Below, piece by piece: positions 1 to 63,811 of a DNA stretch of 64,000 nt. The notes under the pieces are model-generated. The model saw only the letters and a program-made list of their open reading frames with translations, was not told the origin of the DNA and searched no databases. The DNA is taken from NCBI GenBank assembly GCA_965197905.1, contig CBDAOB010000005.1, positions 768,001-832,000 on the forward strand, in the 5' to 3' direction. How positions within the stretch are numbered: the stretch's first letter is position 1; the number at the start of each line of letters is the position of its first letter. The translations under genes were made by a program, and so were the position numbers. This DNA comes from Candidatus Latescibacterota bacterium (GTDB lineage: Bacteria; Latescibacterota; UBA2968; UBA8231).

Positions 1-1
1 G

Positions 2-1501
2 ATTCCCTGGCACCTGTGGCTGCCGGTTCTGTCGCGCTGGTTTGTCCTCATTATTGCCTACCACCTCATGCTGCTGAGCGCTTTGGTGATCCTGCGGCGA
101 CAGTGGGTGGAGAACGAGCGCCTGGCGTTTCCCATGGCCCAGGTACCCCTGGCCATGGTACAGGACAACGGCAGCCCCAATTCGATCATCAAACCGTTCT
201 TCAAGAATCCGGTCATGTGGGCCGGCTTCCTCTTCTGCTTTCTGATGAACAGCACCAACATTCTACACGACTATTTCCCCTGGATTCCCGCCTTCATGGG
301 ACAGGCAACCTACATGATTTTTCGGGAACAGATCGAGATCCAACTTCGTATCAATTTTCTCATGTTGGGTTTTGCCTATTTCATCAATACCGGCGTTGCT
401 TTCAGCATCTGGTTCTTCTACCTCCTCAAGCTCGCCCAGCAAGGTCTCTTAATGACGCTGGGCATAAATCCGTACCAAAGCATGGGTCCCTGGTGGGCGT
501 CCGCCAGCGGCTCCATCTTCGGCCACCAGATGATGGGCGCCCTCATTGTCATGGTGCTCTTTGGTCTCTGGACCGCACGGTCTCACCTCAAGGATGTTTT
601 GCGCAAGGCCTGGAACAGCGATGCACCGGTGGACGACTCGCGGGAAATCATGTCGTATCGGACTGCCGTACTCTGCTTCCTGAGCGGCGGGGCTGTCGTC
701 TTCGTCTGGTTGTGGCAGTCGGGTTTCCCAGCCTGGATCGCGCCGATCTTCATCTTCGCCATCCTGGTGGTCATGATCGGACTGGCGCGGGTCATCGCCG
801 AGACCGGTATACCTACCGTTACGCCCTCCATGGGGCCGGCCACCTTCGTAATGTCCAGTGTCGGCGCGACGGCTCTGGGCATGCAGGGTCTGGTGGCAGC
901 GGGTTACACGCTGGTGTGGGCCGGCGGTTTTCTAACCTTCGTTACCGCGCCCATGGCCAACGCGCTACGCCTGGGGTCGGAGATCACCCGGCATCGACGG
1001 GCCTTGGTGATCGCCATCATGGCGGCTTCGGCGATTGCCATCGCGGCTGGTACCTGGTATTGGATCTATCTGGGCTATAATCACGGAGGTCTCAACCTCA
1101 ATGGCAGATACTACCAGGTCTACTCGCGGTCGGCGCCCCGCTTCGCCGAAGTCGCGATCGGTGGCGCCCCGGGGGTCAACCTGGTTGGGTGGATCTGGTC
1201 AGGAATCGGGGCAGCGGTCATGATCGGTCTGATGATCGCGCGCCACACCTTTGCCTGGTGGCCTTTCCATCCCGTCGGCTTCGCCATCAGCACCTCGTGG
1301 GTGTTGACCGCCACCTGGATGTCGACGCTGCTCGCCTGGCTGATCAAGCTAGGGGTGTTGAAGTACGGCGGACCTGCGCTCTACGAACGAACCAAGCCAT
1401 TTTTCATAGGGATTATTCTGGGCCAGTTCGTGGCGGCGGGGTTCTGGCTGCTGGTGGATGCCTTTACAGGTGTGAGAGGCAATCATATCAGGGTGTATTA
1501 G
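2..1501 (+). CDS. DUF6785/DUF6784-like polytopic membrane protein (putative transporter), subtype A; 5' end lies outside the window
   Basis: The frame is open from nt 2 (IPWHLWLPVLSRWF...). It has many TM segments and the motifs RRQWVENERLAFP, WWPFHPVG and KYGG...KPFFIG. It is closely paralogous to 31035..33014, with the same GNHIRVY terminus. Confidence 0.8.
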   Translation: MPWHLWLPVLSRWFVLIIAYHLMLLSALVILRRQWVENERLAFPMAQVPLAMVQDNGSPNSIIKPFFKNPVMWAGFLFCFLMNSTNILHDYFPWIPAFMGQATYMIFREQIEIQLRINFLMLGFAYFINTGVAFSIWFFYLLKLAQQGLLMTLGINPYQSMGPWWASASGSIFGHQMMGALIVMVLFGLWTARSHLKDVLRKAWNSDAPVDDSREIMSYRTAVLCFLSGGAVVFVWLWQSGFPAWIAPIFIFAILVVMIGLARVIAETGIPTVTPSMGPATFVMSSVGATALGMQGLVAAGYTLVWAGGFLTFVTAPMANALRLGSEITRHRRALVIAIMAASAIAIAAGTWYWIYLGYNHGGLNLNGRYYQVYSRSAPRFAEVAIGGAPGVNLVGWIWSGIGAAVMIGLMIARHTFAWWPFHPVGFAISTSWVLTATWMSTLLAWLIKLGVLKYGGPALYERTKPFFIGIILGQFVAAGFWLLVDAFTGVRGNHIRVY

Positions 1502-1629
1502 CGGTTTGCTCTGCTGCGAACAGGGGCAACTTTGGTTTGACACGTTTCTTGTGCGGCTTTTGCCGATATGCGTCTCATCGAGAAGAGGTCCTAGTACCCT
1601 GCACGGCGGGATCGGCGCTCTTCCTCAAC

Positions 1630-1767
1630 AATGCCGCCGAGACCGTCGAGGTCCGTCAGTCTGTCGTTGTCCCACACGATTATCGCCGCAGGAATACTGC
1701 TCAGGTTTGCCAGCGCATTGTTCGCGATTACGAGACGATCACCCACCGAGCTGAGGTTGGAAAGACC
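1630..1767 (-). pseudogene. Short remnant resembling receptor L-domain/leucine-rich repeats
   Basis: Translates as GLSNLSSVGDRLVIANNALANL...IVWDNDRLTDLDGLGGI, a pattern typical of L-domain repeats. No credible start of its own. Confidence 0.35.
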
Positions 1768-1896
1768 TCGGGGAGCTGTTTCGCCGCCAGCTAACGTCGA
1801 TTTGGTCTTAAGCCTGCTCGTCCAACTCTTGGAGAGCCTGTGCCGAAACAATAATGGGCATAGAGAGCTCGTCCATGGGCTCGCCCGATCGATTGG

Positions 1897-2603
1897 GCGT
1901 GCCTCTTTGTCGTCGTCGCGTGCAGGTTCCATGGCAATGTACTGGGCTACGCGGGGCCGCGTGTCCCAGTTGATGCCGGCCGTGTGCGGTAGGGCGGTGC
2001 GCCAGATGATCAGGTCGCCGGCGTTGGCCGCTACGCGTTGCGACGGATCGTTCCCCTCGTAAGTCCTGCTGCCCGGAGGCAGATGGTCGAGCCAGCTCTC
2101 CAGTTTCTTGTGAAATCCCGGTACGCAGCGAAAGGCTGTTCTTCGGGGGTATCGTTCAGGTAAAGGACACCTTGCACCCCGGAGCCCACAGGTCGGTCTC
2201 CCAGGTCTACGTCCCAGTGCAATCCATGCTCCTGCGCATCGGGATCGCGGCTAGGCGGATTGATGCTGGCACGGTCGTGGCTGACCCACAATTTTTCGCT
2301 GGCCAAAACCTGACTGAAAGCCAGGTGCACGCGCGGGGCCGTGCGGTTGTTCCACTGGGCCTGGTGGTGGTAGATCTCGATCATGCCGGTACCCTTACGC
2401 GCCGGGACCCCGGGGCCATCAGGTCCCGCTGGCCCTGGCGGCCGTTCCGCGTACCAGGTGTCGGGATCATCTGGATCCATTGCTACAAATGCCCACAAGG
2501 CGCGGGCGGTGTCTTCGGCCTGCTCGCGGGAGATTACCTGGCGGGCAATGACATAGCCATTTTCGTCGAAGAATTCCAGATCTTTCGTAGTCAGAACGGA
2601 CAT
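1897..2603 (-). pseudogene. PhyH-family Fe(II)/2-oxoglutarate dioxygenase, frameshifted and C-terminally degraded
   Basis: MSVLTTKDLEFFDENGYVI...LHWD...VQGVLYLNDTPEEQ, then a frame change near 2135 continues as AFRCVPGFHKKLESW...AGDLIIWRTALPHTAGINWDTRPRVAQYIAM. Confidence 0.75.
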
Positions 2604-2741
2604 GGGCGGTGCCCTCCGGTTATGCGACTTTTTCCAACATACAGAATAATAACCTAAGCGCTTCTTGAGAGACAATCTCGGCAAATAGCGTCTGGTCTAT
2701 CGCCACTGCGGCCACCTGCGTCGGCGTGAAACATCACTCTC

Positions 2742-5718
2742 CTAAAGCAGCAAGTTCGAGAGATCGGGGAACCCCACCAGGGTCCGCACGAGAACGGAAA
2801 AGGTATCGAAGTTGCCCCCCGATCTCGCCGCGGAATCGAATTCCTTGGCGTCCCGAATCAGTCCGACAACGGTGTAGAGTTCGTATCCGAAGTACCGCGA
2901 TCGGTTGGTCAGAGATGCGATCGCGGTTCGGCGCCTGAAGCTGTCCAGGCCGCGCTGTCGGTTGTCGAAACGATACGGAAGAGGACCCCCACCCCTGTAT
3001 TCCCAGGCGCGCGGTGGTGCGAGCCATGAGCGGCATCTCGAACAGCAGGATGGGCAAGGTCTCGTACTCGAAGCGAATGGTCCGGTCTTGTTCGCGATCG
3101 ACGAAACGGATCATCTGAAACTTGAACTTCGGCCGTATGCTGAGCTTTCCCAAGTTCCAAGTGTAATCCAGGCGGTTAACGAAGGTCGAGTGGTCGAGGC
3201 GGCGTTCGCGCCCGATAAACCCTCCAGATAAACGCCCCCCCTTCTGCCAGTTCACCCGCAGGCGGAGCTTTTGCACCAGATTGAGAGTCGACCAGGGCTG
3301 CAGCCAGTTTTCGAGATAGGCCTCGTTGACATAGCTGTTTTCGTAGAGCAACTGATCCTCGCGGGGGCGGCTGTGGAACGAGCGATTGCCCCTATAGGCG
3401 GAGTGTACATAGAACCGGTACTCCCCCGTAAACCGTCGGTTTTCCGCGAAGATATTGTATTCGTCAGGGATGTTGTCTCGCACGCGGCGAAAGCTGTTTT
3501 CGAAGAACAGCCGCCGCACGCGGTCGAGGCCCTCGCGGCGATAGGTGAGCAGGGTGTAGGTGGTAAGGTTCGCGCCGCTGCCGGCCATCTGCTCGACATC
3601 ATGGCGCCCCAGAGCCAGCGTCCAACGTTGGCTCAGATTGGCCTGGGCAAAAACGTGATAGCCGCGCTGGTCCGCGTCGTAGGGGTGGTCCGGGTCCCAA
3701 TCGTCCTCCCGCTGATCGGGCTCGTCGTTGTTGTTGCGGTCGAGTCCATAGGTGTAGTCGTTGGGTTCCACTTCGTACATCAGGAAAGGCTCCAGGTAAT
3801 CCGGTAACGCATCGCCGTTGCGATTGATATCGGGATAGCCGTCGTTATCTGAGTCTTGAGAGATGTAGACGCCGTCCGGATCTATTCCGCAAGGGGGGTT
3901 ACAATCATTGATGTACCAGGTCCCGGTGGTCCATCCGGTGCGCTTGTCCGGGAATCTGTCGCCGTCCTCGTTGTCCTGCACCAGGTCCCAGTAGATGGTT
4001 TCATTGGAAATGCCCTTGATCGTGCTGCGGTGATCCGAAACACCCCCCTCGCGCGCTACGAAGCTGCGCATGGTGGTGGTGAACTCGGGATTCATGGCGA
4101 AGTACTCGCCGCCGAATCGCCAATTCCCTGTCCAGCGCGTGGCGTTGATGAAGTAGGCAGAGCCCCGGTCGGCAAAGCGTGGGCTTTCATCGAAGCTGGG
4201 AAGATTCGCGGTTTCGGCCGGAAAACGTCGGTACACGCTGGAGCGCGCGTACTCGCCATTCAACTCCAGGCCGACAACCTGCAGATTCAGATCGGCGCTG
4301 TAGGTGAATATGGCCGTGTCCTCACCGATCCGAAACCGCACTCGCTTCAGATTGGACAGGTCCTGAACATTGTCGCGGGCTCGCAACACCGTGCGGTAGA
4401 ATTCGCTCTTGAAGCGCTCCTCATATCCTTTGCCGCGAATATTAGCCTCCCGCAGGTTGGCCACCTCCACCCGGTAGTCGTTTGCCAGCATCGCCTCCAC
4501 CTCGACGGATTCCAGGTAGGGTTCCTGCGAAATATCGAAGAGGTAGACAAGCTGCTCGTCGCCATCAGCACGCTGAAGCTCCGCGGCAGATTCTACCGTG
4601 AACGTGGAAAGCAGGCGGCTGAGGTTGGTCTGACGGCTCACGTCCACTCCTGCTTCGTGGTCGTGGCGGTAGAGATAATCGGCGTAGAGGGGGATCTCGT
4701 CGCGGCCCCGGTAAAATGTTGTGTAGCCCGGGGTATGAGTGAAGTGGGGATAGGGGAGAAACCTGCCCGTAATCACGGAATAGGTACCGACCTGGGTAGT
4801 GGCGTTAGCACGGTGTCGGATCACCTGTGGCACGAGGTTCCGTCGCGGCTCGCCGTTGACGATCAGCAGGATATCCTGGATCACCGCGCCGCCGCGGCCA
4901 TCCCGGGGGGAATCGTCCGCAAAGCGGACAACGATCCAGTCGACCAGAGGGTGACCGGGTCGCAATATGCCCTTGATGCTGTTGTCGGGTCGCCCACTAT
5001 CGTATACGTGGAGATTGGCGAGATTCAAACCGAGGCTGGCGTTGCCGATATCGGTCTGCAGGCGGCCACCCAGAAGTAGGGAGGAGTCCGCGGCGTACAT
5101 GGTCGGTCCGATATGAAATGGAGTTTTGCGAACATAGTCGAACCCGCGGGGTGCGTAGGGGCGTTGAATGCGACTCGCCAGGGTCGTCAGTTTGAGGTGT
5201 GGGGTCGCAAGATCGAAACGAAAGCCGCTGAAATCGACCAGCGACAGCGTAAGGGGCGTGAAACGTGCCGTGAGTACGTCTCCCACGGTGGCACTGTAGT
5301 TCCAATCGCCATAGCCATCGCGAGCGATAGCTATGTAGGCGAAGGCCTCGGTCCAGGTGCCCTCATTCTTGGATATGGAGCTGCCCCACTGGAGTTCCGG
5401 TTGGCGCCGCTCATACCAGGTGAAGAGATCGTAGCCGGTAACCACATGGTCGCCGAACACGTCGTAGATCGCTCGCGGGTAGAAGTTCTCGACGAGGCCA
5501 GGTTGCTCCGCCTGCGGGAAGTTGGTTTGCAGATAGTTGCTGTAGGTGTCGAATGCGTAGTTTTGGTAGGACGGCACCGGCCGCCGCAGCAGCCAATTGG
5601 TGGGATAGGATTCGGCAAGGGTTACGCGCGATTCTTCGCCGTAGCCAACACCGGTTCCAATGCTGGCCAAAACCACCAGAAGGAAATTTCGCGGGATGCT
5701 GCCGAATCGACATGTCAT
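2742..5718 (-). CDS. Large (~990 aa) exported, putative outer-membrane protein with acidic DxDxDG repeats (paralogue 1); +1 frameshift near the C-terminus
   Basis: Signal-peptide-like N-terminus; colinear with 9211..12180 and 55666..58680. Removing one base from the C5 run at 2986-2990 restores GPLPYRFDNR...NRSRYFGYELYTVVG...VRTLVGFPDLSNLLL*, which matches the paralogues' C-termini. Confidence 0.75.
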
Positions 5719-5884
5719 CGTCACCAGTCCCTTTTTCTGGCACGGCGATTCCTTATGTCACTTCATAGGTTTCGCTTGGCTGACATCAATAAAAACAGAT
5801 AGACTCTCGAGCACAAAGAGCTCACCCAAAATGCCCCTCAAATGATTCCGGGCCGGTTACGCGCTCCTAACCAGGACAGGTAGA

Positions 5885-7857
5885 ATGGTGTCAGACCCAG
5901 TTCCCGGGGAACATTCACCTGCAGACGGAGCGCATACTCGACGCACGTGGGAAGAGCAGGAAGAGTCTGGTCCCACCATTACCCTCCGAGCTGTACTGCT
6001 GGGTATAGTCTCCTTCTGGGCAGTGGTGCATCTATTGTTTCTTTCGGTGAGCTCACAGCTCCCGTTGATGGTCCTCATTTCCTTCGTCTTCTGGCTCTTC
6101 TTCAACTCCCTGCTCAGAACCTTCGTCCCGCGGCTGGCGCTACGCAGGGGCGAGCTACTGACGATTTTTACCACGGATGGGTAGTGGGCACGGTACCCCT
6201 CAATGGCTGGATGTGGGACATTGTAGCGATGCTGCCGCTCCCGACTCACGGTGCCGGACCTGAAAACCAGTGGGTCGAGGTCCTATTCGACATGTTGCCC
6301 TGGCACGTGTTCACCAGCACCGAGCCGAGGGTTATAAACGGTTACTGGTACGGGCTTGATCAGGGCGAGACGGTACCGTGGGGGGGATGGGTTGGCGCCA
6401 TTGGTCACTGGTTCGGCGTCTCCATGGGAATGATGGTATTCGGATTCTGCATCTTCGTGCTCTTTCACCGCCACTGGGTCGAAGGGGAAAAGCTGACCTT
6501 TCCTCTGGCTCAGATGCCGCTCGATCTCACACTCGGCTGCGAAGGTCCAGGACGCGTTCCCCGCTTGTTCAAATCGTGGCTATTCTGGGTGGGAGTCGCC
6601 GCGGTTTTCTTGCCAGCCGCCTACAATTCCGCCGGTTATTTCCTGCCCGGATTGCCCAAGACGAAAATCTTCTTCGACGCGTATTCCGTCGAACTGGGCG
6701 AGCACATTGGTGTCTCGATTCGCTTGTTGCCCCTTGCTCTCGCCGTCGCCTATCTGTGCCCGCTGGATATACTGGCCAGCTTGATTGTTTTCTACTGGCT
6801 GACCCTGCCCAAGGAGTGGATGATGAGCCGGACCGGTTTGACGGTCGGCTCCGAAGGCAACCAGCTGGGCGCCAGGGATATTCTTCAGATGGAAGGCTAC
6901 GGGGCCCTCATCTTTGTCGCCCTCTGGTCCATCTGGTTGGCACGGAGGCACCTTCGTGGCATCTGGCGACAAGCATTCTCCAGGGAAGGGGACCCGAGCG
7001 ACACGAGGCAGTACCGTTGGGCGCTCTTCGGGCTGTTGGTTTCGGGACTCTATGTCACGGGCTGGATCATGGCACTTGGGGCAAGCCTGCTCCTGGCAGC
7101 GGGGTTGTTGCTGTTGTTTACCCTAGCCCACTTCGTCACGGTCAAGCTGATGGCGGCTACCGGATTTGCATATCTCATCCCGAACCATCCCCATCTCAAG
7201 GGAGAGTCCTTCATTCTCCACCTGGTGGGCACAGAACATCTGTCGCCGCGCTCGGTGGTAGGCCTCAAGCTCATCACTGGCAATGTGTTCATGGGCTCTG
7301 CCGGGCGGATTCCGGGCTGGCCGGCAATCGTACACCACCTGCGCATCTTCTCCATCCGCCGGCAGCCCGTGTGGGTTCCGGCCTCATTGCTTGTCGCCTT
7401 TGCCTGCGGCTTTCTCGCTATTGCCGGGACCACCATAGACTGGGCGTACGGTAGGGCGACCCAGGGCATGGGCGGAAACGACCGAACCCTCGACCAGATG
7501 GTGCGCCTGATCCACCAGCCCACCGTGGCGGCGGCGGGCAAGTGGGCCGTATGGCTAACCGGCTTCTTCGAAGCTGCGGGAATCGCCTGGCTGCGGATGC
7601 GCTTTCACTGGTTTCCCTTTCATCCGGTGGGATTGGCGTTTCAGTACACGGTGGGTGCGCGGTTCTACTGGTTCAGCCTGCTGGTGGTGTGGATAGTAAA
7701 GTACGGCCTGCTGCGCTACGGCGGCGTTCGACTCTACGCGGCTGGAAAGCCGTTGTTCTACGGCCTCGTTGTAGGTTACGTGATCGGGGTCATCCTGGCC
7801 CGGGGTGTGGATCGAATATGGTTTCCTGCGGAGTCGCACTGGCTCCACAGGTGGTAA
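5885..7857 (+). CDS. DUF6785/DUF6784-like membrane transporter, subtype B; split by a -1 frameshift at ~6175
   Basis: ORF 5885..6184 (ITLRAVLLG...LRRGELLTIF) joins the frame of ORF 5947..7857 (WVVGTVP...HWVEGEKLTFPLAQ...WFPFHPVG). Together they are colinear with intact 27214..29181 (GELLTIFCMLWLVGTVP). Confidence 0.75.
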
Positions 7858-7886
7858 GGGGACGCTCCGATGGTTCTGACATGGTC

Positions 7887-9023
7887 TCAGCTGGTAGCTG
7901 TGACGACGTTCACCGGAACCCGGTGCCACCCGGTGCGGCCATCGTAGGCGTCGGCCCCGTCGTCGTCTCGGGGTTGGACGTCCCCGGCATCATCGGTTGC
8001 CCTGGCGACGATCTGGTAGCCACCGCTCTCCGGCAGGGACCAACGGTAACCCCAGGTCACCCATATGTTGGGCGAATTTCTCGTTGTTATCTGCGCCTCC
8101 TGCCAGTGCACCCCGCCGTCGGTGCTTACCTCGATCCGGGCTACCCTGCGCTCCCCCGCCATCGCTATGCCGTGAATGACAAAGTCGTCTCCAACCTTTC
8201 CGCGAAGCGTCTGCGGGGCAACGGTCGTACCGCCGCCGGCGGGATCTTTCACATCATCCCACACGGAAACCGGCGCATCGATGCGCGAGTTGACGGTGGC
8301 AATGGCGTCATCTGACCACTTGTACGGCTGGTCCTTGGGAAGACTCTCCCAGTACCCCAGGTAGACGTTGTCGATGAGATCAATCCGGTCAATCCACTTC
8401 GGCATCTTTTGACCGTAGTGCCCGGGATTGATCAATCGCACCGGGAACCCGTGTTTGGATGGCAAGGGCTCGCGGTTCATTTCCCAGGCGAGAAGAACCT
8501 CCTCCCTGACGGCGCGTTCGAGGGGAATCGAGGTCGAATACCCGTCGATGCTGTGGAACTTGACGCGTATGGCCTGATTCCGCACGCCCGCGCGTTCCAG
8601 GAGATGTCGCAGCGGCGTGCCTCCCCACTCGGCATTGCCCACCAGGGGTCCTCCGATCCAGTTGCCGATGCATTGCAGCGTAACCGTATGCCTCTCGAAA
8701 GGCAGCAATCTCATGTCACCATAGGTGAGATCGTTTATGGGTGAATTCACCAGACCACCTACGCTCAGATGCCATCTGTCGGGATCCACTCGCGGGTCGT
8801 ACTGTTCGCCCTCTATGGACACTACATAGAAGCGGTCGTTGCTGGTAACGGGAGGCAACGGCAGGTCTTCCTCCGTCGTCGCTGGCGGGACATCCAGGTC
8901 GGGCGCCGTCGGCATGGCGGTCACATCCACGGAATTATCCGCGCACCCGACCCATGGCACAAAGCTCGAGATCATCGCACCCCCCCCCGCCTTCAGGAAA
9001 TCGCGCCTCGGCATTCGTTTCAT
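7887..9023 (-). CDS. Tat-exported molybdopterin oxidoreductase, sulfite oxidase family (catalytic + dimerisation domains), probable lipoprotein
   Basis: Twin-arginine signal PRRDFLK and lipobox-like WVGC. Mo-ligating Cys in LQCIGN; family motifs GNAEWGG, HGFPVRL, PGHYGQKMPKW and EVSTDGG. Confidence 0.88.
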   Translation of the reverse strand: MKRMPRRDFLKAGGGAMISSFVPWVGCADNSVDVTAMPTAPDLDVPPATTEEDLPLPPVTSNDRFYVVSIEGEQYDPRVDPDRWHLSVGGLVNSPINDLTYGDMRLLPFERHTVTLQCIGNWIGGPLVGNAEWGGTPLRHLLERAGVRNQAIRVKFHSIDGYSTSIPLERAVREEVLLAWEMNREPLPSKHGFPVRLINPGHYGQKMPKWIDRIDLIDNVYLGYWESLPKDQPYKWSDDAIATVNSRIDAPVSVWDDVKDPAGGGTTVAPQTLRGKVGDDFVIHGIAMAGERRVARIEVSTDGGVHWQEAQITTRNSPNIWVTWGYRWSLPESGGYQIVARATDDAGDVQPRDDDGADAYDGRTGWHRVPVNVVTATS

Positions 9024-9210
9024 CGATCAGCTCTCCCCGCCCATTCGCCGATCTGCCACGAGTCTATCTTTTCTGAATATCGGCCAGAATCTCCAGGGAC
9101 TCGTTCGCGGGGTTGTATTGGGATATTGATGTTCGCCAACGGAAACAGAAACGCAAGCGCTCGATGACGCTGCTTTACTCCAGCTGGCTCGAACCGAGGG
9201 GGATCTAACG

Positions 9211-12180
9211 CTAGATGGCCGGCCCGAACCCGGAGAAGCCTATGAAGGCGCGCACGAAAAACTCCAGGGTCTTGAAGTTCCGCTGGTCCCTGAATTTGGT
9301 GTCGAACTTCTGCGTGTCCTTGGCAACGCCCATCAGGGTCACCAATTCGTAGCCAAAATAGGCAGACGTGTTGATCAGGGAGAGGAAAGAGGTGTGTTGC
9401 TCGAAACTCTTGCGCTCCGAGGTGTCGTCGCGACGTCGATACGGTAGCGGTCCAAAGCCCTGCATCCCCGCCCGCAGCGTCGTCCTCGGTGAGAGGGCAT
9501 ATTCCAGCCGCAGAATGGGGATGGAGCGCAGCTCGGAGCGCAGCCGCACCTGGCGCTCCCGATCCTCCAGACGCAGCAGCATGAATTTGTATTGCGGCGT
9601 GAAAAGCAGCTTGCCCCAGTGAAAGGGGTGTTGGATGCGGGTCACCGAGGTCCAGAAGTCCAGGCGCCGATCGCGCTGGAAGCGCCCGCTGCGCAGCTCA
9701 CCGCCCTGCTGCCAGTTGAAGCGCAGGCGGATTTTCTGCACTACATCCAGGTCCGACCAGAGCCGGACGCGACCCTCCAGGTTGGATGCGTTCACGAAGC
9801 TGTCCTGGTAGAACAGCAAATCCGGGACGAAGTCGACCTTGAGGAATTTAACGACCCCCTGGCCCCTCGGGCCGCGGGGCATGAAGACGATCCCGCGCCC
9901 TTCAAAAATGGTGTTGCGGTCGCCGGCGTCGTCCTGGAAGTCCATGAACTCGTCGGCGATGTCGTCCTCCACCTTGCGGCTGTTGTTTTCGAAGAAGACC
10001 CGCCTGAGCCACCCCGACCCCTGTCGGCGATAGCCGACCAGCCCGTAGGTGGAGCGACTGCGGCCGGTGCCCGCAATCTCCTTAACGGAGTAATGCCCCA
10101 CCGAGAGATACCAGTATGGCGTCAGGTGCCATTGACTGAACAGGTGAAACCCGCGCTCGTCGTAGTCGTACGGATAGTCCACCTCGCTGTCGTCTTCGCG
10201 CCGGTCGGGCTCGTCGTTGTTGTTGCGGTCGAGACCGTAGGCGTAGTCGTTGGGCTCGACGTCGAACATCAGGAAGGGCTCTTCGTAGTCGGGGATGCGA
10301 TCCAGGTCGCGGTTGGTATCCGGGATCCCGTCATGGTCCTCGTCCTGATCCAGAAACACGCCGTCTACATCGGTGCCGACATTGGTGCTGTTATAGCCCA
10401 ACAGAGCACCGTAATTAATGTCGGTAAAGTGATCCCCATCGTCGTTGTCGTCCACCGTCTTCCAGTACATGTAATCGTTGAGCGTTCCCGAGAGATGGCC
10501 TAACCGGAGGGGACTCTCCCAATGCAGATAGGAACGGAACTCGGTGGAAAACCCCGGATTGATGGAAAACAGCTCCCCGCCTACCAGCCCGCGCTCGAAA
10601 TTGCGGACGGCATTGAGAAAATAGGCGGAGCCGCGGTCGGCGAAGCGCGGCGACTCATCGAAGACGGGGCTGTTGTCGATCTCGGCGGGATAGCGTGAAT
10701 AGACGCTGGAGCGCGCGTACTCGCCGGCGATCTCCAGCCCTGGCAGCTCGAGGTGCAGATCGGCGCTGTAGACGAAATGTCCGGTGTTCTCGCCGATGTC
10801 AAAGCGCCGCCGCTTGAGGTTGGACAGATCCTGGACATTGCCCCGGGAATGCGCCAGATCCTGGTAATAGTTGGCCGTGAACTTGTCATAGTAGGAGCTG
10901 GCGAACGCGGATTTGAAATATAACGTCGCCACCTCCACATGGTAGTCGTTCCCCACGACGCCCTCCAAGGCGACCGATTCGATCGCGGGCTCGGTGCTCA
11001 GGTCGAACAGAAAGACCAGCTCCCGCTCCCCGTCGGCGCGCAGCAGCGCCTGGGGCGACTCAACCGCATAGGTGGAAAGAAGACCGGGAAGATTTCCTTG
11101 ACCGCTGACATCGAGGCCATCCTCGTGGTCGATCCGCAGGAAGTAATCGGCAAAGAGCGGAATCTCGCGGCCGCGATAATAGTATTCGTTGACGTACGGC
11201 GTGGCCGCAGAGCCGGCGGAGAAATAAGTGTAGTTCACCGCCTGGAATTTACCGGTGAGGGCAGAAGTGGATCCCACTTGCAACGAGGGATTGGCCTGGT
11301 GGCTGATTATCCGTGGCACCAGATCGGGTCGGACCTCCCCGTTGACCACCAGGACCACCTCCTGCACCGCGGCGCCCCCCACGCCGTCGGCCGGCGAATC
11401 ATCCTTGAAACGCACGATGATCCAGTCCATTAGCGGGTGGTCCGGCTTCAGCCGGCCCTTGAGGCTGTTGCCGGTGGTCTGCGTGCTCTGGTAGATATGA
11501 TGGTTCACCCAGTTGAGGCCCAGGTGCAGGGCGCCTAAATCAGCCTGGGCGCGGCTGCCCAGCAGCGAATCATCGGCCCGGTGCCGCCAGAGCATAAACG
11601 ACTCGCCTGATTGTCGGAGATCTCGCATATAGCCCATCGGCCGCTCGGCGCGCGACGCCACCGTGGTCAGCTTCAGATGGGGGGTGGACAGATCGAAGCG
11701 GACCCCGTTGAAGTCCACCTTGTAAAGGGTCAACGGCGTAAAGCGGGCGATCACCCCGTCTCCCGCCATCATATGGAAACCCCAGTCGCCGTAGCCGTCG
11801 ATGGCCGCCACCCGCAGGTCGAATACGCTGAGCCAGGGGCCGGGAATGGTCTTGAATATGTCGCTGCCGAACTTCAAGCCCTCCCTCCGGGTTTCTTCCC
11901 ATCTGAACAGATCGTAGCCGGTCAGCAGGAAGTTGCCGAAGGAATCGTAGTAGCCGGTCGGCGAATCGGTATAGGGAGCAGTATGATTGGGATAGTTCTC
12001 GTACTGCTGGAAGGCGAAGTTGCGGTAGGGAACGCGCTCCCCGCGCAGGAACGGCCGCGCCGGAAACACCTCGTCCAGGGGCAGGTCCTGGGCGTGCGCC
12101 GGGAACCCCCACAGCGCCAGCACCGCAAGCACACTCCAGCGCATGCTGGACCAATATCTGGTCGCGAAGCCGCGCGCCAT
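9211..12180 (-). CDS. Large (989 aa) exported, putative outer-membrane protein with acidic DxDxDG repeats (paralogue 2)
   Basis: Signal peptide ending AHA-QD; repeats DDNDDGD, DEDHDGIPD and DRNNNDEPD. The C-terminal third is rich in alternating aromatic/hydrophobic segments. Confidence 0.8.
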   Translation of the reverse strand: MARGFATRYWSSMRWSVLAVLALWGFPAHAQDLPLDEVFPARPFLRGERVPYRNFAFQQYENYPNHTAPYTDSPTGYYDSFGNFLLTGYDLFRWEETRREGLKFGSDIFKTIPGPWLSVFDLRVAAIDGYGDWGFHMMAGDGVIARFTPLTLYKVDFNGVRFDLSTPHLKLTTVASRAERPMGYMRDLRQSGESFMLWRHRADDSLLGSRAQADLGALHLGLNWVNHHIYQSTQTTGNSLKGRLKPDHPLMDWIIVRFKDDSPADGVGGAAVQEVVLVVNGEVRPDLVPRIISHQANPSLQVGSTSALTGKFQAVNYTYFSAGSAATPYVNEYYYRGREIPLFADYFLRIDHEDGLDVSGQGNLPGLLSTYAVESPQALLRADGERELVFLFDLSTEPAIESVALEGVVGNDYHVEVATLYFKSAFASSYYDKFTANYYQDLAHSRGNVQDLSNLKRRRFDIGENTGHFVYSADLHLELPGLEIAGEYARSSVYSRYPAEIDNSPVFDESPRFADRGSAYFLNAVRNFERGLVGGELFSINPGFSTEFRSYLHWESPLRLGHLSGTLNDYMYWKTVDDNDDGDHFTDINYGALLGYNSTNVGTDVDGVFLDQDEDHDGIPDTNRDLDRIPDYEEPFLMFDVEPNDYAYGLDRNNNDEPDRREDDSEVDYPYDYDERGFHLFSQWHLTPYWYLSVGHYSVKEIAGTGRSRSTYGLVGYRRQGSGWLRRVFFENNSRKVEDDIADEFMDFQDDAGDRNTIFEGRGIVFMPRGPRGQGVVKFLKVDFVPDLLFYQDSFVNASNLEGRVRLWSDLDVVQKIRLRFNWQQGGELRSGRFQRDRRLDFWTSVTRIQHPFHWGKLLFTPQYKFMLLRLEDRERQVRLRSELRSIPILRLEYALSPRTTLRAGMQGFGPLPYRRRDDTSERKSFEQHTSFLSLINTSAYFGYELVTLMGVAKDTQKFDTKFRDQRNFKTLEFFVRAFIGFSGFGPAI

Positions 12181-12228
12181 GGGAAACCTTCCCGTCTGTC
12201 TAGCAGTAACCCGGGAACAGAATAAAGA

Positions 12229-12259
12229 ACAGGGGTAGATTGTGACAATCTACCCCTGT
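12229..12259 (-). terminator. Intrinsic terminator downstream of the CTD/Ig surface-protein gene
   Basis: Perfect 14-bp inverted repeat ACAGGGGTAGATTG/CAATCTACCCCTGT, followed on the minus strand by TCTTTATT. Confidence 0.8.
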
Positions 12260-12295
12260 GTAACCATACTCACATACGACCCGCGCGATGCGGGT

Positions 12296-14260
12296 TTACT
12301 TCAGCAGCGTCACCGCCTGTGTGGCCGAGAACTGACCGGCCTGCATGCGATAGAAATAAACGCCGCTGGATACCGGTTCGCCCTTGGAATTGTGGGCGTT
12401 CCAGGTGGCTTTGTAGGCGCCCGCCGGCTTGTAACCGTCGATGAGCGTGTCCACCAGCTGACCAGTGGTGTTGAACACCTCGATCTTCACCTGGTCTTCA
12501 TTTGCCAGCATAAAGTCGATGGCGGTCTCGGGATTGAATGGGTTGGGATAGGCGGCTCCGAGACTGTGGCTTTCGGGCAAGGCGGCGCTTGCCACCTCCT
12601 CGACCGCGGTTATGTTCGCCCCCATCTTGCCACTCTCGACCGCAAACGGCAGGTGCAGGCCCATATTGGGGACGCGTGGCTCGGTGGCTTCGTACGTATG
12701 GACCTCGTGATGAACGATGCTGTAATTGGTGTTGACGATGAGGCCGTCGTACGGACCCGGACCCTGGTTCGGGGCGCAGTAGAGATCGCCGTCATGCTTG
12801 GCGCAGTTGTTGGTGATCATGGCAACATTGGTGGTCGTATGTTGCGTGAACGGACCGACCGAGTAATCGAAGAAGGTCTGGCCGATGCCCGTCCCGTCGC
12901 GGCCGTAGATGGAGTGCCAATTCCCGAGGGTGTTGTGCCGCGGGGTAGTGATCGCAATCCTGCTCCTGGCGTCCGGCACAGAGTCGAGGATGAGGGCGAG
13001 CTCGCCGTTGCGGGCCGGACCCTGAATCCCAAGAGCGGCGGCGCGCTCGGCCGAAATCTGATCGCCGTAGTGGTCGCCCGGGCCGTTGGACCAGATGAGG
13101 TTGAAGTCGTGATCGATCTTGAGGAACTGGGTGCCGCGCCAGCCCATCGGCCACATGCCGCTTTCGTCCACGGTGATGGCGGTCGTGCCGCCGTTACCAA
13201 AGGCCTCGTTGCCGTTGTCGTCGATGCGGTATCTACGGTAGAACTCCACATGATCAGAATTGTACATGAGGAATTCGCCCGTGGTTTTGTCCCACACCCC
13301 GATTCCGGGATTTGGGGGGTCCGCTCCGCTCCAGTTGGTCGTATACATCTTGTCCTTCCAGAGCGCCACCGCCATGGTGGCCTCCGTGTCGGGCATCGGC
13401 TGTTTCGAATAGCCGTTGTCGCCCCAGTTCGGATCCCGATCCAGGGTTTTGGCGGCGTCATTCCGTAGCAGCCGGTAGACGCCGGCGCCGCCCCAGGTAG
13501 ACCAATTACCACCGATAAACGATACGTAGTAGGCATTCGGGTCGTCCACGTCCGGGCGGATGCCGCCGACCGTACCGCCGTTGTCGATGGTGTTGAGTTC
13601 CTCTACGAAATTCCAGGTCTCATAGCCAGTGGGGTTGTCAAGATAGTTGGTGCCCATCTTGCCGAGCGCCAGAGTGCCCCAGTACTGCCCCGCGTCTGCC
13701 GGCCCCTCAATGTGGGTCCATTGATCGCCGTTGCGCATATCCCAGACGGGGTCGCCCATTGCCATGGTGCTGAGCCCTACGAACGCCGCCGGGTCCACAT
13801 TATTGAGGGCGATGACGTCGAACTCGTAGTTACCAGGGCCGGCGGCATTACCCTCCCAATCATTGCCGTCCCATATGATCGTATTGGTGCCCTGTTCGAC
13901 GGAAATACCTTGGACACCACCGACCGTGGCGACATGCTTGTCCTGCGGAATGTAGCGAATCACCGCGTCGTTGATCCCGGTAGGACCGGTATCGTTGGAG
14001 CCGATCTCGTAGATGGCGACCCAGATGGTGGCGCGCTGGTTCGTTGTGATTGTAATGTCGGCGGCACCGCTGCCGCTGTAGGGGACATTTTGCGTGGTCA
14101 GGCGCATCGGATTCGCCGTGGTATTGGTGATCTCGCCGATGAGCTCTTGATAATTCTCCGGGAAGCTATCAAGCCCCGGCGGATAGGTCTCTGCCCCGGC
14201 GATGCCGACGGCAAGGACACCTAGTACTAAAGCAATAATTCCGATTCGAGGTAACTTCAT
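12296..14260 (-). CDS. Secreted 654-aa protein with an N-terminal FlgD-like Ig domain and a C-terminal FlgD-Ig/T9SS type A sorting-like domain (paralogue 1)
   Basis: Start MKLPRIGII follows an AAGGAGG RBS; signal peptide AGA-ET. Internal WDGNDWEGNAAGPGNYEF motif; C-terminal AYPNPFNPET...SSGVYFYRMQAG...TLLK. Confidence 0.85.
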   Translation of the reverse strand: MKLPRIGIIALVLGVLAVGIAGAETYPPGLDSFPENYQELIGEITNTTANPMRLTTQNVPYSGSGAADITITTNQRATIWVAIYEIGSNDTGPTGINDAVIRYIPQDKHVATVGGVQGISVEQGTNTIIWDGNDWEGNAAGPGNYEFDVIALNNVDPAAFVGLSTMAMGDPVWDMRNGDQWTHIEGPADAGQYWGTLALGKMGTNYLDNPTGYETWNFVEELNTIDNGGTVGGIRPDVDDPNAYYVSFIGGNWSTWGGAGVYRLLRNDAAKTLDRDPNWGDNGYSKQPMPDTEATMAVALWKDKMYTTNWSGADPPNPGIGVWDKTTGEFLMYNSDHVEFYRRYRIDDNGNEAFGNGGTTAITVDESGMWPMGWRGTQFLKIDHDFNLIWSNGPGDHYGDQISAERAAALGIQGPARNGELALILDSVPDARSRIAITTPRHNTLGNWHSIYGRDGTGIGQTFFDYSVGPFTQHTTTNVAMITNNCAKHDGDLYCAPNQGPGPYDGLIVNTNYSIVHHEVHTYEATEPRVPNMGLHLPFAVESGKMGANITAVEEVASAALPESHSLGAAYPNPFNPETAIDFMLANEDQVKIEVFNTTGQLVDTLIDGYKPAGAYKATWNAHNSKGEPVSSGVYFYRMQAGQFSATQAVTLLK

Positions 14261-14360
14261 CTCTTTTTTTCCTCCTTGAGGGTTCCAGGTTCCACGTGGC
14301 TTCAAATAACTATATTTAATCGGCACATCTACTTTGATCGGCACATCGTTGCGTCCCCTA

Positions 14361-14381
14361 TGCATCACCTCCTTTGGAGAC
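14361..14381 (-). promoter_or_regulatory. Conserved upstream extended Shine-Dalgarno-like leader element
   Basis: GTCTCCAAAGGAGGTGATGCA lies ~100 nt upstream of the start codon and is 20/21 identical to 53488..53508 upstream of the paralogue. Confidence 0.6.
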
Positions 14382-16528: not shown

Positions 16529-18478
16529 ATGGTTGATGGGAACTCTTTCTCAAAACCGGTGACGATCCCCGGGTTGGTCGAGGTCAAAGCGACCCAGGTT
16601 TCGCCACCACCAGGTTGGGCGCTCCTGGAGCGCCAGTTGATGAAACTCATGGAGGACGCAGTTCAGCCGATGGTGGAGAAATACGCCGAGAAGGGCGGGG
16701 CCTTCTACTTCGCCGACGATGTGGACGACCTCTACGAACGGGTCTACAACTGGGGCCTGTTCTATGCCATGGGCGCAGACAGACAGGTGCTTGACCTGGC
16801 GCTGCAGTCGTGGAACGCGACCACCCGTTTCCACGCCGACGACATCGTCAGTCGCGTCCACCGCCGCTTCCACGCTCAGATCCACAACGAATACTACAAC
16901 CAGGAGGTCCCCGGTGCGAGTGAATGGTTCCATCAGGGCGAGGGGAACATGGCCTTCTACCACTTCGGCCTGGCCGATCCGACGATCTCGGAGAATTTCC
17001 GCCGCGCCAAACGATTTGCCGCGATGTTCATGGATGAGGACCCCGAGGCCGCCAACTACGATCCCGAACACCGGGTCTTCCGCAGCCCGATCCAGACCAG
17101 CGTCGGACCGTACGTCCACAGCAGCCTGGAGCACGCGACCTCGTGGCTTCAGGGGGGGATACCGAGCATCGGCGAGGCCTACCGCTGGTACGGCGTGCGG
17201 GCTACCCTCGATCCGGTCGTCGTGGACCTGGAGCCGGACTGGACGGAAAACCCGGAGCGTAGGGACGAGATCCTGAAGCTGTTCGATCAGGTCGTCCTCA
17301 ACGGCGATGTGGCCAACAGCCTGGGCGCGACCGCTCTCGTCACCAACGCCTACCTCTACACCGGCGAAGAAAAGTACAAGCAGTGGGTGTTGGACTATTC
17401 CGAAGCCTGGATCGAACGCATGCGGCGCAACGACGGCATCATGCCGGACAACGTCGGACCGACCGGTCAGATCGGCGAAAACCGGCAGGGCCAATGGTGG
17501 GGCGGGTTATACGGCTGGAACAGCTTCGTCGGTTACGGCATCATGTTCAGCTGCCTGACAATCGCTGCCGAATGCGCCGTCCTGCTCAGCGGCGACTTCA
17601 GCTATCTGGAACTGCTGCGCTCGCAGATCAAGGTCCTCATGGACAACGCTACCCTCCGTGAGGATGGGCACCTTACCCCACCGGCACGCTATGGCCCCGA
17701 TGGATGGTCGTACCATATGGGCCATCCGGATCCCGAGAAGGGGAGGGTCCAGCCGTTCCGCCTGCAGGAACCGACCCACCTCTACCACATCTCCATGGCC
17801 TCGGAAGACTACGACCTCATCGCCAGGATACGGGAGGCTGACAAAGAGCGCGACTGGAATGAGGTGCCGGTGGTTGGCGAAAAGAACTGTGGCGACACCG
17901 AGCTCGCCCGTTTCCAATACTACGATGGCAAGAATCCGGACTGGCCCGAGAAGGCCATGCGGGCCGATTACCAGAACGTCCTGAACGCCGTTCAAATGAT
18001 ACAAAACGAGGCCCGCGATCCCTTTACCTTGATCGCGGACAACCCCGGCTCCCCGAACCCGGTCTATACCAAAGCGCTGACCCAGGTGATGATGGGCGCC
18101 CCCCATTCGGTCTATACCGGAGGGCTCGTGCGGGGGACCTTGCGCTACTTCGATTCGGACCGCGCGCGCCCGGGGCTGCCGCTGGATGTGGCTGCCCTGG
18201 TGGACCGACTGGACGCCGACGGTGCCGGCGTGCAACTCGTTAACCTTAACCCAGGAAAGACGCGAAACCTGATCGTGCAGGCCGGGGCGTTCGCCGAGCA
18301 CCAGTTTGTCGAGCTGACCCATGAGGATAGGACTGTCCCGGTAGATTCGAAGTACTTCGCCGTCCAGCTTCCGCCCGGTTCGTCTATTCGGCTGGACCTC
18401 GGGATGCGGCGGTTCGCAAACCAACCGACCTACGCCTTTCCCTGGCACGGCGACAGCATACCGGTGCCGTACCAATAA
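16529..18478 (+). CDS. Conserved 649-aa protein of unknown function (paralogue 1; possibly a helical-barrel enzyme)
   Basis: Long ORF colinear with 22719..24668 and 61693..63693. Shared motifs DDxDDLYE, EWxHxGEG, PDNV, WWGGxYGW and YAFPWHG; no signal peptide. Confidence 0.8.
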   Translation: MVDGNSFSKPVTIPGLVEVKATQVSPPPGWALLERQLMKLMEDAVQPMVEKYAEKGGAFYFADDVDDLYERVYNWGLFYAMGADRQVLDLALQSWNATTRFHADDIVSRVHRRFHAQIHNEYYNQEVPGASEWFHQGEGNMAFYHFGLADPTISENFRRAKRFAAMFMDEDPEAANYDPEHRVFRSPIQTSVGPYVHSSLEHATSWLQGGIPSIGEAYRWYGVRATLDPVVVDLEPDWTENPERRDEILKLFDQVVLNGDVANSLGATALVTNAYLYTGEEKYKQWVLDYSEAWIERMRRNDGIMPDNVGPTGQIGENRQGQWWGGLYGWNSFVGYGIMFSCLTIAAECAVLLSGDFSYLELLRSQIKVLMDNATLREDGHLTPPARYGPDGWSYHMGHPDPEKGRVQPFRLQEPTHLYHISMASEDYDLIARIREADKERDWNEVPVVGEKNCGDTELARFQYYDGKNPDWPEKAMRADYQNVLNAVQMIQNEARDPFTLIADNPGSPNPVYTKALTQVMMGAPHSVYTGGLVRGTLRYFDSDRARPGLPLDVAALVDRLDADGAGVQLVNLNPGKTRNLIVQAGAFAEHQFVELTHEDRTVPVDSKYFAVQLPPGSSIRLDLGMRRFANQPTYAFPWHGDSIPVPYQ

Positions 18479-22718: not shown

Positions 22719-24668
22719 ATGGCTGATGTGGGCTCTTCTTCGAAACCGGTGACGGTCCCCGGATTGGTCGAGGTCAAAGCGACACAGGTTTCGCCGCCCC
22801 CGGGCTGGGCGCTGCTGGAATGCAAGTTGATGAAACTCATGGAGGAAGCCGTTCAGCCGATGGTCGACAAGTACGCGGAAAAGGGAGGGGCCTTCTACTA
22901 TGCCGACGACGTGGACGACCTGTACGAAAGGGCTTATAACTGGGGCTTGTTCTATGCCATGGGGGCAGATCGACAGGTGCTCGACCTTGGGTTGCAGCAG
23001 TGGCACGCAACCACCCGTTTTTTCGCCGACGATATCGTCAGTCGCGTTCACCCCCGCTTCCAACCTCAGATCCACAACGAATACTATAACCAGGCCTCTG
23101 CCGGTGCGAACGAGTGGTACCACCAGGGCGAGGGCAACATGGCCTTCTACCATTTCGGTTTGGCCGACCCCACCATTTCGGAGAACCTGCGCCGCGCCCG
23201 GCGATTTGCGGCCATGTTCATGGATGAAGATCCCGAAGCCCTCAACTACGATCCCCAGCACAAAATCATGCGCAGCCCCGTACCGACCAGCGTTGGCCCC
23301 ATGCGCCACGCTACTGTCGAACATGTGCTGATGTGGCTTCATGACCACCAGAGAAGTTTTGAGGCGGGGAAGCGCCCCTACAAGGCACGGGCCACGCTCT
23401 ATCCGGTGGTCAAGGACCTGGAGGCGGACTGGTTCGAAAACCCCGAGCGTCGAGACGAGATCCTAAAGCTGTTTGACGAAATCGTGCTCAACGGCGACGT
23501 CCCCCACAGCCTGGGTTCGACCGCTCTCGTCACCAACGCCTACCTCTACACCGGAGAAGACAAGTACAGGCAGTGGGTGCTGGACTATACGGGAGCGTGG
23601 ATGGAGCGCATCCGACGCAACGGCGGCATCCTGCCCGACAACGTCGGGCCTACCGGCCAGATCGGCGAGAATCGTCAGGGCCAGTGGTGGGGCGGGCTCT
23701 ACGGCTGGAACAGTTTCGTCGGTCACTACATCATGTTCACCTCGCTGACCATCGCCGCCGAATGCGCCCTCCTGCTCACCGGCGACTTCGGCTACCTGGA
23801 ATTGCTGCGCTCGCAGATCAAACTGCTCATGGAGAACGCCATCACCCGCGATGACGGCCAGCTCACCCTGCCGGCCCGCTATGGCCCGGACGGCTGGGAA
23901 TACACCATGGAGAACTACAGCTATGAGCAGGGCAGGTTCGTACCCTTCCGCCTGCAGGAGCTCGCCCACCTCTACCACGCCTCCATGGCGGCCGAAGACT
24001 ACGACCTCATCGCCAGGATACGGGAGACCGACAAAGAGCGCGACTGGAATGAGGTGCCGGTCGTTGGAGAAAAGAGCTATGCCGATACCGAATTGGCCCG
24101 CTTCCAGTACTACGACGGCAAGAACCCCGACTGGCCCGAGAAGATCCTGCAGGCCGAGTACCAGAATGCTCAGACCGCCTTCGAGACGATACAAAACGAA
24201 ACCCGCGATGCTCAGACCCTGATCGCAGACAACCCGAGTTCCCCGAATCCGGTCTACACCAAGGGCTTAACGCAGGTGACAATGGGCGCACCGCAATCGG
24301 TGTACACGGGAGGGCTCTTGCGCGCGACCGTGCGTTACTTCGATTCAGACCGGGCCCGGCCCGGTTTGCCGCGCGACGTGGCCGCTCTGGTCGACAAACT
24401 GGACTCCGAGCGCGCCGGCGTTCATCTAGTCAACCTGAATGCCAGCGAGACGCGAAACCTGATCGTCCAGGCCGGGGCGTTCGCCGAGCACCAGTTTGTC
24501 GAGCTGACCTATGCGGATCAGACCGTTCCCGTGGAGTCGAAGTACTTCGCGGTCCAACTGCCACCTTCTGCATCCATCCGGCTGGATGTGGGTATGCGCC
24601 GCTTTGCCCACCGTCCCACCTATGCTTTTCCCTGGCACGGGGACGAGATACCAGTGCCGTACCAGTAG
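22719..24668 (+). CDS. Conserved 649-aa protein of unknown function (paralogue 2)
   Basis: GGAGG RBS; closely colinear with 16529..18478. Confidence 0.8.
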   Translation: MADVGSSSKPVTVPGLVEVKATQVSPPPGWALLECKLMKLMEEAVQPMVDKYAEKGGAFYYADDVDDLYERAYNWGLFYAMGADRQVLDLGLQQWHATTRFFADDIVSRVHPRFQPQIHNEYYNQASAGANEWYHQGEGNMAFYHFGLADPTISENLRRARRFAAMFMDEDPEALNYDPQHKIMRSPVPTSVGPMRHATVEHVLMWLHDHQRSFEAGKRPYKARATLYPVVKDLEADWFENPERRDEILKLFDEIVLNGDVPHSLGSTALVTNAYLYTGEDKYRQWVLDYTGAWMERIRRNGGILPDNVGPTGQIGENRQGQWWGGLYGWNSFVGHYIMFTSLTIAAECALLLTGDFGYLELLRSQIKLLMENAITRDDGQLTLPARYGPDGWEYTMENYSYEQGRFVPFRLQELAHLYHASMAAEDYDLIARIRETDKERDWNEVPVVGEKSYADTELARFQYYDGKNPDWPEKILQAEYQNAQTAFETIQNETRDAQTLIADNPSSPNPVYTKGLTQVTMGAPQSVYTGGLLRATVRYFDSDRARPGLPRDVAALVDKLDSERAGVHLVNLNASETRNLIVQAGAFAEHQFVELTYADQTVPVESKYFAVQLPPSASIRLDVGMRRFAHRPTYAFPWHGDEIPVPYQ

Positions 24669-33014: not shown

Positions 33015-33272
33015 GGAGGCGCCTTGTTGGCAAGTACCGAACCCTTTGGTCCGGAGGCGCGCTTCGTTGCATCTTGAGCCATCGCCCTACCCTTTTTTTC
33101 CGTTATTCGCCCAAAAAGCAGGCCGGATTGGAGTTGCGGTGAGAGAATGTGATATTGGGGTAGGCTCTTGGTCAAGGAGGGCTCTTACCAGCAGATTATC
33201 TGTTGCGATGGACCTTGAAGCGCCATCGATGGCGGAGTGTCTAATCCAACGACACAGTCGAAGGTGTCCGAT

Positions 33273-48690: not shown

Positions 48691-48694
48691 ACCC

Positions 48695-63693: not shown

Positions 63694-63811
63694 GAGTTGG
63701 GTCTCCTCCGGAAACACACGGCGTCGTGAGCCCAGACAACATGAGTCCTGCACTGGGTCTTGGTGACGCCGTGAATCGCGAATAGCGGATAAGTCTCATT
63801 GTGGTCGTTTT

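Follow-up and report, generated by a model that had tools for sequence, protein, structure and literature searches.

Dispersed Genes of a Candidate Motor-Linked Outer Membrane Barrel System in a Latescibacterota Genome

The 64,000-nucleotide stretch of DNA analyzed here (the window; positions 768001 to 832000 of contig C5 in genome G000, which is 6.69 Mb and 91% complete) comes from a Candidatus Latescibacterota bacterium, and titled records with close relatives are mostly Candidatus Latescibacterota. It carries repeated members of three gene families, named here L (a large protein), D (a DUF6785 plus DUF6784 protein), and C (an Ig protein with a C-terminal domain, CTD). An initial annotation had read them as a three-component uptake system of surface binding protein, outer membrane channel, and inner membrane permease, analogous to SusCD loci. 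This is partly supported: we interpret the window genes as satellites of a larger, undescribed, motor-linked barrel system, and the best explanation for them is that an envelope cassette conserved in Latescibacterota has copies of its genes scattered through the genome.

RESULTS

Linkage and distribution of the three families

A profile search of the genome detected 61 L, 39 D, and 17 C loci, which became 56 L, 38 D, and 17 C once fragments of fewer than 300 profile columns were dropped; all window genes listed by the initial annotation as recurring together were confirmed. C lies within 3 kb of L in 10 of 17 cases, against 1.7 expected under contig shuffling, 2.7 under local shifts of up to 100 kb, and 3.3 under shifts of up to 50 kb (P = 0.001 each). 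Under the same three nulls, D is near L in 12 of 38 cases against 3.4 (P = 0.002), 7.1 (P = 0.031), and 8.8 (P = 0.116), and C is near D in 4 of 17 (P = 0.011, 0.14, and 0.27). Other CTD-tailed proteins are adjacent to L in 1 of 79 cases (background, 1.6%), compared with 7 of 17 for C. The linkage of C to L is therefore specific, since it survives all nulls and the 79-protein control, and that of D is loose, since it weakens under local shifts. The same control ruled out L as a general anchor of CTD proteins. Co-oriented C-D-L runs are found at L078 in this genome, at L041 and L047, and at L107, L108, and L122 in three other genera.

L was found in 94 of 151 sampled genomes of the phylum, with 63 of 63 in the same family, 30 of 31 in nine other families, and 0 of 56 in families f2, f3, f4, and f8, and a representative library holds 765 L relatives at an E value of ≤0.001. 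C occurs in 18 of 24 genomes of the same family and in 0 of 16 outside it. L, C, and the ExbB subfamily of the cassette described below were not found in 16 genomes of families f2 to f4.

A conserved core cassette with an ExbB-ExbD-ExbD motor

The wider organization of these genes was seen at all 29 C loci detected, across 14 genomes, in genera outside g1 and g3; the loci are homologous and so represent few independent events. L is present at 24 of them, a second tagged surface protein with an F5/8 domain (F) at 21, and D at 14, against 2.9 expected from copy density. The linkage of C to L holds in these distant genera; D, as described below, is not a fixed third component. The cassette reads C, F, L1, L2, L3, a tetratricopeptide repeat (TPR) protein, a DUF4159 protein, two exported proteins or lipoproteins, ExbB, ExbD, and ExbD, with D often divergent upstream and, at locus L132, downstream. 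The core of the present genome is located at 471 to 492 kb of C5, where ExbD-ExbD-ExbB diverges from a run of F, F, L, L, TPR, DUF4159, a lipoprotein bearing a GltG-like tail, and L; this AgmX/PglI (GltG-like) tail scored 56 bits against a cutoff of 40. For 17 of the 23 full-length proteins in the ExbB subfamily, an L gene is at most about 8 kb away; 2 are beside other cassette genes at contig ends, and 4 are unlinked. Cassette DUF4159 proteins have a single N-terminal hydrophobic segment and a Pro/Lys/Arg-rich linker, a predicted TonB-like layout. L-less genomes encode DUF4159 domains as well, there in open frames of smaller size (232 to 399 amino acids). A canonical TonB-ExbBD locus is present and separate from the cassette. 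Short pieces across the core cassette were found in RNA-library contigs of two studies.

Since the conserved core comprises, besides this motor, a DUF4159 protein anchored in the membrane, a TPR protein, and F as another tagged surface protein, the uptake system is probably energized and probably not, as had been proposed, built from unrelated parts only. The window modules would use the core motor in trans.

Two further observations concern cassette surroundings. A second cassette type, F-L-L-TPR-ExbB-ExbD-ExbD-lipoprotein, with L clades of its own and several DUF4159 genes, occurs in relatives (L144 to L147, L156), with none detected in this genome. ASPIC/UnbV FG-GAP proteins, most of them accompanied by a TPR protein, are repeated neighbors of C and D (L045, L078, L084, L085, L089, L093, and L097); they lie within three genes of C in 4 of 22 cases (0.3 expected) and of D in 6 of 22 (0.6 expected), and are a possible further component of the system.

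Expansion of the L3 type among catabolic genes

A tree of 125 L proteins, built over 765 columns, includes 45 proteins from this genome, where 22 split or short gene calls were excluded. First- and second-position cassette L proteins form two clades of 24 (support, 1.0) with one copy from this genome in each. The remaining 43 of the 45, all three window L proteins included, group with third-position genes (68 sequences; support, 1.0). Among these 43 L3 proteins, conservation is 0.37 to 0.41 in the predicted outer loops, 0.62 to 0.68 in the barrel, and 0.73 in the acidic core.

L genes are embedded among catabolic genes, as had been noted for the window, and catabolic families, including oxidoreductases, are enriched three- to fivefold beside them. 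Found within three genes of L are 6 of 26 sulfatases (1.1 expected), 11 of 58 GH130-like proteins (2.4 expected), 6 of 29 enolase family members (1.2 expected), and 3 of 17 PhyH proteins (0.7 expected), along with 0 of 42 ABC ATPases (1.8 expected).

L is predicted to be an outer membrane β-barrel

The AlphaFold2 model of L, computed on 115 sequences (predicted local distance difference test [pLDDT], 81.6; predicted template modeling score, 0.82), has at least 23 long strands over residues 123 to 981, with short turns on one side and long insertions (residues 230 to 463, 541 to 674, and 740 to 792) on the other. The top 12 Foldseek matches are all membrane barrels, as are all 50 VIA rows. The best match, Deinococcus SlpA, is weak (template modeling [TM] score, 0.17 to 0.19; Z, 12.9 to 13.7; root mean square deviation [RMSD], 8.1; about 400 residues aligned), and a partial SlpA_C match (PF21620) was found by Pfam. 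L thus models as an outer membrane β-barrel with no close solved relative, as the initial annotation had anticipated, and not as a soluble enzyme. The insertion at 541 to 674 contains 27% Asp/Glu, and its Asp-rich motifs suggest that it may bind calcium.

Searches for known barrel signatures gave the following. No TonB_dep_Rec barrel (PF00593) or plug was matched by Pfam in the three window L proteins, and no convincing TonB box was seen on inspection of the L N terminus by eye; the genome has 27 TonB-receptor matches, none of which coincides with an L locus. Pfam detected no SLH domain in window L proteins; in the L model, the only helix before the barrel is the signal peptide, and there is no coiled coil. 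L gave no PorP/SprF match in Pfam or NCBIfam and no match to the Glt models of NCBIfam. PDB sequence searches with D, C, and the L insert returned nothing beyond FlgD.

C carries a type IX secretion tail

The C tail matches TIGR04183, the type A tail of a type IX secretion system (T9SS), with 35.8 and 31.0 bits against a curated cutoff of 23; a signal peptide was read by eye. Homologues of SprA, PorV, and PorU are encoded in the genome, and a search for GldN gave no match, its control being silent too. Given the type A tail and these homologues, C is likely displayed on the cell surface, in keeping with the surface role first assigned to it. The C body resembles NHL propeller proteins, a lead from a feature search (scores, 0.84 to 0.91).

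A strong 3′ hairpin followed by a T-run is present at 10 of 17 C genes, versus 0 of 50 L, 0 of 35 D, and 25 of 2,649 other genes. Positions 12253 to 14409 of the window, spanning one C gene, are matched almost base for base by contigs from two sponge RNA libraries, both belonging to one study, in which DNA carry-over is possible; the two RNA runs with contigs ending near 12253 to 12260 are likewise one study. Cover of the L and D genes in 1 to 12200 by RNA-library contigs is little or none, which is no proof of absence.

Several C genes have additional features. A second strong Shine-Dalgarno (SD)-like motif, 25 to 220 nucleotides (nt) upstream of the start, is found in 4 of 17 C genes versus 18 of 2,649 others, with window examples at 14345 to 14375 and upstream of 53590; a leader peptide and an mRNA-stabilizing element are candidate readings. 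At locus L088 (G000, C4:1315835-1316400), 189 nt are 84% identical to the start region of the 16S rRNA gene of the genome; this stretch adjoins the upstream side of a C gene (C4:1313885-1315834), is oriented into it, and is possibly a captured rRNA promoter driving high C expression. At L091 (5895 to 9500), a C-family protein of 1,202 amino acids with about 600 extra N-terminal residues is encoded next to a GH116 gene and an L.

D adopts a predicted OPT fold and is probably recruited locally

The four window D genes were assigned by Pfam with E values of 1e-63 to 1e-110. A model of one of them (D 27214; 40 sequences; pLDDT, 87.4) matches barley Yellow Stripe 1 (YS1; 7wsr) over nearly its full length (Foldseek E value, 1e-8; TM scores, 0.65 and 0.70), and a second fold search gave a Z of 20.6 with an RMSD of 4.3 over 552 aligned residues, the next match having a Z of 5.6. 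Because its model matches the Yellow Stripe 1 fold, D is probably an OPT-fold secondary transporter, which agrees with its initial assignment as a transporter. No Pfam match to OPT (PF03169) was obtained among the window D proteins; the D-family protein L069 reached 36.6 bits to PF03169 against a cutoff of 25.8, and hhalign of D against OPT gave probabilities of 7.6 and 38.8 with shallow profiles.

Among the D genes of this genome, 14 of 35 lie within two genes of an L or C and 21 of 35 lie farther away. In a tree of 55 D proteins, the linked D proteins of this genome are scattered, and the cassette-linked D proteins of distant genera mostly belong to the other deep subfamily. This scatter, together with the abundance of D in 16 genomes without L and C, reads as repeated local recruitment of D, which would not be a dedicated partner of L. 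A D subfamily confined to L-bearing genomes was considered and rejected, as relatives of D 27214 at 41 to 43% occur in L-less genomes and linked D proteins are spread over the tree. At L079 (12244 to 19384) and L080, a 1,471-amino-acid fusion of an M28 peptidase with an FtsX-type permease is neighbored by two DUF6785 genes in divergent orientation and by a protein weakly resembling OPT.

Features of the window

The features of the window are listed in Table 1. The divergent L-D arrangement and the co-oriented C-L arrangement described by the initial annotation at its left end are present as stated; the second C-L pair is also present, but its two genes converge. A further L gene stops 64 nt ahead of where the first D gene starts, slightly beyond the window edge. 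In a Pfam scan of 41 window open reading frames, neither a TonB-dependent receptor nor SusD was detected, as first observed, and SusD (PF07980) had no match in the 91%-complete genome, where a Bacteroides control was positive.

Table 1. Positions of L, D, and C genes and of an associated hairpin in the window
Feature	Position	Strand	Basis or context
D; DUF6785 plus DUF6784, predicted inner membrane protein of the OPT/Yellow Stripe-fold family	2..1501	+	Pfam; 5′ end 400 nt before the window
L (L3 type); predicted outer membrane barrel	2734..5676	-	48% identical to L 9211; tree
D	5930..7857	+	Pfam; divergent from L 2734..5676
L (L3 type); signal peptide, predicted barrel of at least 23 strands, insert 230-463, conserved Asp-rich region 541-674	9211..12180	-	AlphaFold2, fold searches, composition
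Terminator-like hairpin; 14 pairs and T-run	12229..12259	-	Between C 12296 and L 9211
C; signal peptide, FlgD-type Ig, NHL-like propeller region (lead), type A T9SS CTD	12296..14260	-	Directly upstream of and co-oriented with L 9211
D; copy chosen for structure prediction (OPT/YS1 fold)	27214..29181	+	Pfam; fold model
D; other deep subfamily, with about 25% identity to D 27214	31035..33014	-	Pfam
C; 55% identical to C 12296	53590..55548	+	Convergent with L 55666..58680
L (L3 type)	55666..58680	-	Convergent with C 53590

L 2734 contains a frame change near 2990 that puts its final ~75 residues out of frame. This change is common to locus L001 and one public contig set and missing from another set, so it looks like a real polymorphism. 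In D 5930, the frame is broken near 6177 by a one-base difference from L001, a related locus. Counts of promoter-like and terminator-like elements in 1 to 15000 equal those of shuffled sequence, the single 14-pair hairpin being the exception, and an Rfam scan gave 0 matches.

Among the other window genes, a PhyH-like dioxygenase gene (2031..2603) appears truncated, which may be an assembly error, since one contig set lacks a base at 2159. A protein of about 650 amino acids without a Pfam or NCBIfam match has three window paralogues (16529..18478, 22719..24668, and 61693..63753), two of which adjoin enolase family dehydratases, and six copies in the genome. According to Pfam, 33237..35030 encodes a homocysteine S-methyltransferase domain fused to a PrmA-like methyltransferase. 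At 47317..49051, an AtuA family gene is followed by DUF4387, with an M20 peptidase and a spermidine/putrescine-type ABC transporter as neighbors.

DISCUSSION

We lean, if only slightly, toward a proton-motor (ExbBD) system that captures substrates and imports them through a new family of barrels, for which OPT-fold permeases are recruited at individual loci and L3, C, and D act as dispersed, interchangeable specificity modules. The type IX system would export the predicted surface proteins C and F, which would bind or concentrate substrate, and the predicted L barrel would move it through the outer membrane with force from the ExbB-ExbD-ExbD motor of the cassette, presumably transferred by the membrane-anchored DUF4159 protein, the lipoproteins, and the TPR scaffold. 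The single-copy L1 and L2 may be a common core or partners in mixed oligomers, with L3 as the variable subunit. Local enzymes and OPT-fold D permeases, the latter as locally recruited and not dedicated partners, would complete uptake and bring the products into the cytoplasm. Judging from the neighboring enzymes, substrates may be sugar-, sulfate-, or amine-bearing organic compounds. A bolder version is tentative: fixed L1 and L2, coupled to ExbBD via DUF4159 and TPR, would combine with any of dozens of L3 proteins and with caps delivered by the type IX system and feed OPT-fold permeases, constituting a second, independently built class of energized importer in which the exchange of a single subunit within a mixed barrel oligomer would set specificity, a design not known from TonB-dependent transport.

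A number of observations weigh against import by such a system. The core is about 280 kb from the window, and no motor genes lie near the window modules; the TonB-C-like or GltG-like tail is found in only 4 of 26 annotated loci; and related cassettes are not independent events. L has no C within 3 kb in 46 of 56 cases, C and L converge or diverge in 3 of the 7 cases where they are immediate neighbors, and a terminator-like hairpin separates C 12296 from L 9211. D (PF20581) is matched in 41 of 41 genomes, the 16 genomes without L and C each having at least 17 to 28 matches, so that a fixed three-component system is not supported. Residues 23 to 120 of L are modeled at low confidence, which makes any plug or gate tentative and the strand number a lower bound, and the enrichment of neighbors may reflect shared catabolic islands. 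A trade-off between L and TonB receptors was looked for and not seen, L-less genomes having 13 to 27 matches, no more than the 27 found here. Substrate binding, transport, and L-C contact are themselves inferred.

Of the alternatives, the one that survives best, which we still hold to be unlikely, makes L a cognate shuttle or surface anchor for the type IX cargo C and F, resembling PorP/SprF, with ExbBD driving hand-over or display and no solute passing through L. Type B T9SS cargo genes likewise adjoin the genes of their PorP/SprF barrels, such linked cargo and shuttle genes being described for Flavobacterium in PMC12618676. C and F both bear T9SS-type tails and precede L in the cassette, and the SprA, PorV, and PorU homologues would fit this role, as would the lack of a GldN match, for which the search control was silent. 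But L outnumbers C plus F (56 versus 20) and mostly has no neighboring cargo, the single case among 79 other CTD proteins argues against a shuttle, and SprA is encoded in 5 of 5 genomes without L and without the cassette ExbB. L is also far larger than PorP/SprF (about 980 amino acids, with large inserted domains) and without a Pfam match to that family, and the C tail is of type A.

It is rather improbable that the cassette serves adhesion, gliding, or the building of a surface coat in the manner of Agl-Glt, with C as an abundant surface protein and L paralogues diversifying under host or phage pressure rather than for substrates. Agl-Glt of Myxococcus has an ExbB-type and two ExbD-type motor genes, a GltG-like transducer, the GltA/B/H barrels, and a cytoplasmic MglA/MreB link. 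The cassette shares with it a MotA/ExbB protein with two ExbD proteins, a large TPR scaffold, outer membrane barrels, and, in some cassettes, a GltG-like tail; the strong terminators and extra SD-like motifs of C genes, as in highly expressed genes, the cover of C 12296 by RNA-library contigs, and the presence of sponge metagenomes among the data sets with close DNA and RNA matches point the same way. Yet the tail is confined to a minority of cassettes, the L barrels are unrelated to those of Agl-Glt in size and sequence and have no Glt match in NCBIfam, the surface partners are T9SS tagged, and L3 copies have as neighbors intracellular enzymes of catabolism as well as OPT-fold permeases, which seem to have been drawn repeatedly from separate D clades.

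The least probable account takes L as a passive, substrate-selective porin family like SlpA/OmpM, with C, D, and L co-occurring only through accumulation in the same catabolic islands; the fading of D-L and C-D linkage under local shuffling and the partial SlpA_C match speak for it, but C-L linkage survives such shuffling, and the motor genes form one operon-like run with L across many genera and are absent together. Deinococcus SlpA (SDBC; PDB 8ae1/7zgx), the best structural match, is a very large, trimeric, 30-stranded barrel whose insertions bind metal according to PMC9388160, and the L insertion is conserved and Asp rich; that source defines SlpA/OmpM by an N-terminal SLH domain and a coiled-coil stalk, neither of which L has, and L differs further in its poor superposition (RMSD, ~8), its dozens of paralogues, and its motor linkage.

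Among known uptake systems, the proposed ExbBD-powered importer would have a counterpart in SusCD, known from gut bacteria, but be made of other components. TonB-dependent transporters are the textbook energized uptake route across the outer membrane, and TonB-ExbBD with SusC/SusD utilization loci are systems of the Bacteroidota, in which the transporter (SusC) is a 22-stranded barrel with a folded N-terminal plug. Like SusCD, the L system has many paralogous outer membrane barrels beside surface proteins, catabolic enzymes, and inner membrane permeases, and its ExbB/ExbD motor is encoded once and presumably used in trans. Unlike SusC, L has no TonB-receptor or plug match in Pfam and at least 23 modeled strands, and the genome has no SusD match; the surface partners are T9SS tagged instead of lipoproteins, and the system has its own ExbB subfamily, DUF4159, TPR, and three barrel types, with canonical TonB and the 27 receptor matches separate. 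D shares its predicted fold with the OPT/Yellow Stripe family (PF03169; barley YS1, PDB 7wsr/7wst), whose members carry peptides or metal chelates in a proton-coupled manner, but has only 12 to 14% identity to it and 38 copies in one bacterial genome. The full-text literature, with subscription journals outside its coverage and with supplements that could list the proteins as hypothetical, yielded no description of the system, none of DUF6785, no account of type IX secretion with SprA in Latescibacter, and nothing that combined DUF4159 with ExbB or T9SS with Gemmatimonadota and ExbB; the available part of PMC4454575 mentions only non-specific porins and TonB-dependent import.

If import through L is correct, it would be a second energized outer membrane uptake route beside TonB-dependent transporters, from an unrelated barrel family, and L would explain much of the unannotated coding space of marine and of sponge-associated Latescibacterota. 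DUF6785 would gain a predicted fold (OPT) and DUF4159 a testable role, and each L3/D module would become a candidate substrate locus, as SusCD pairs are in Bacteroidota.

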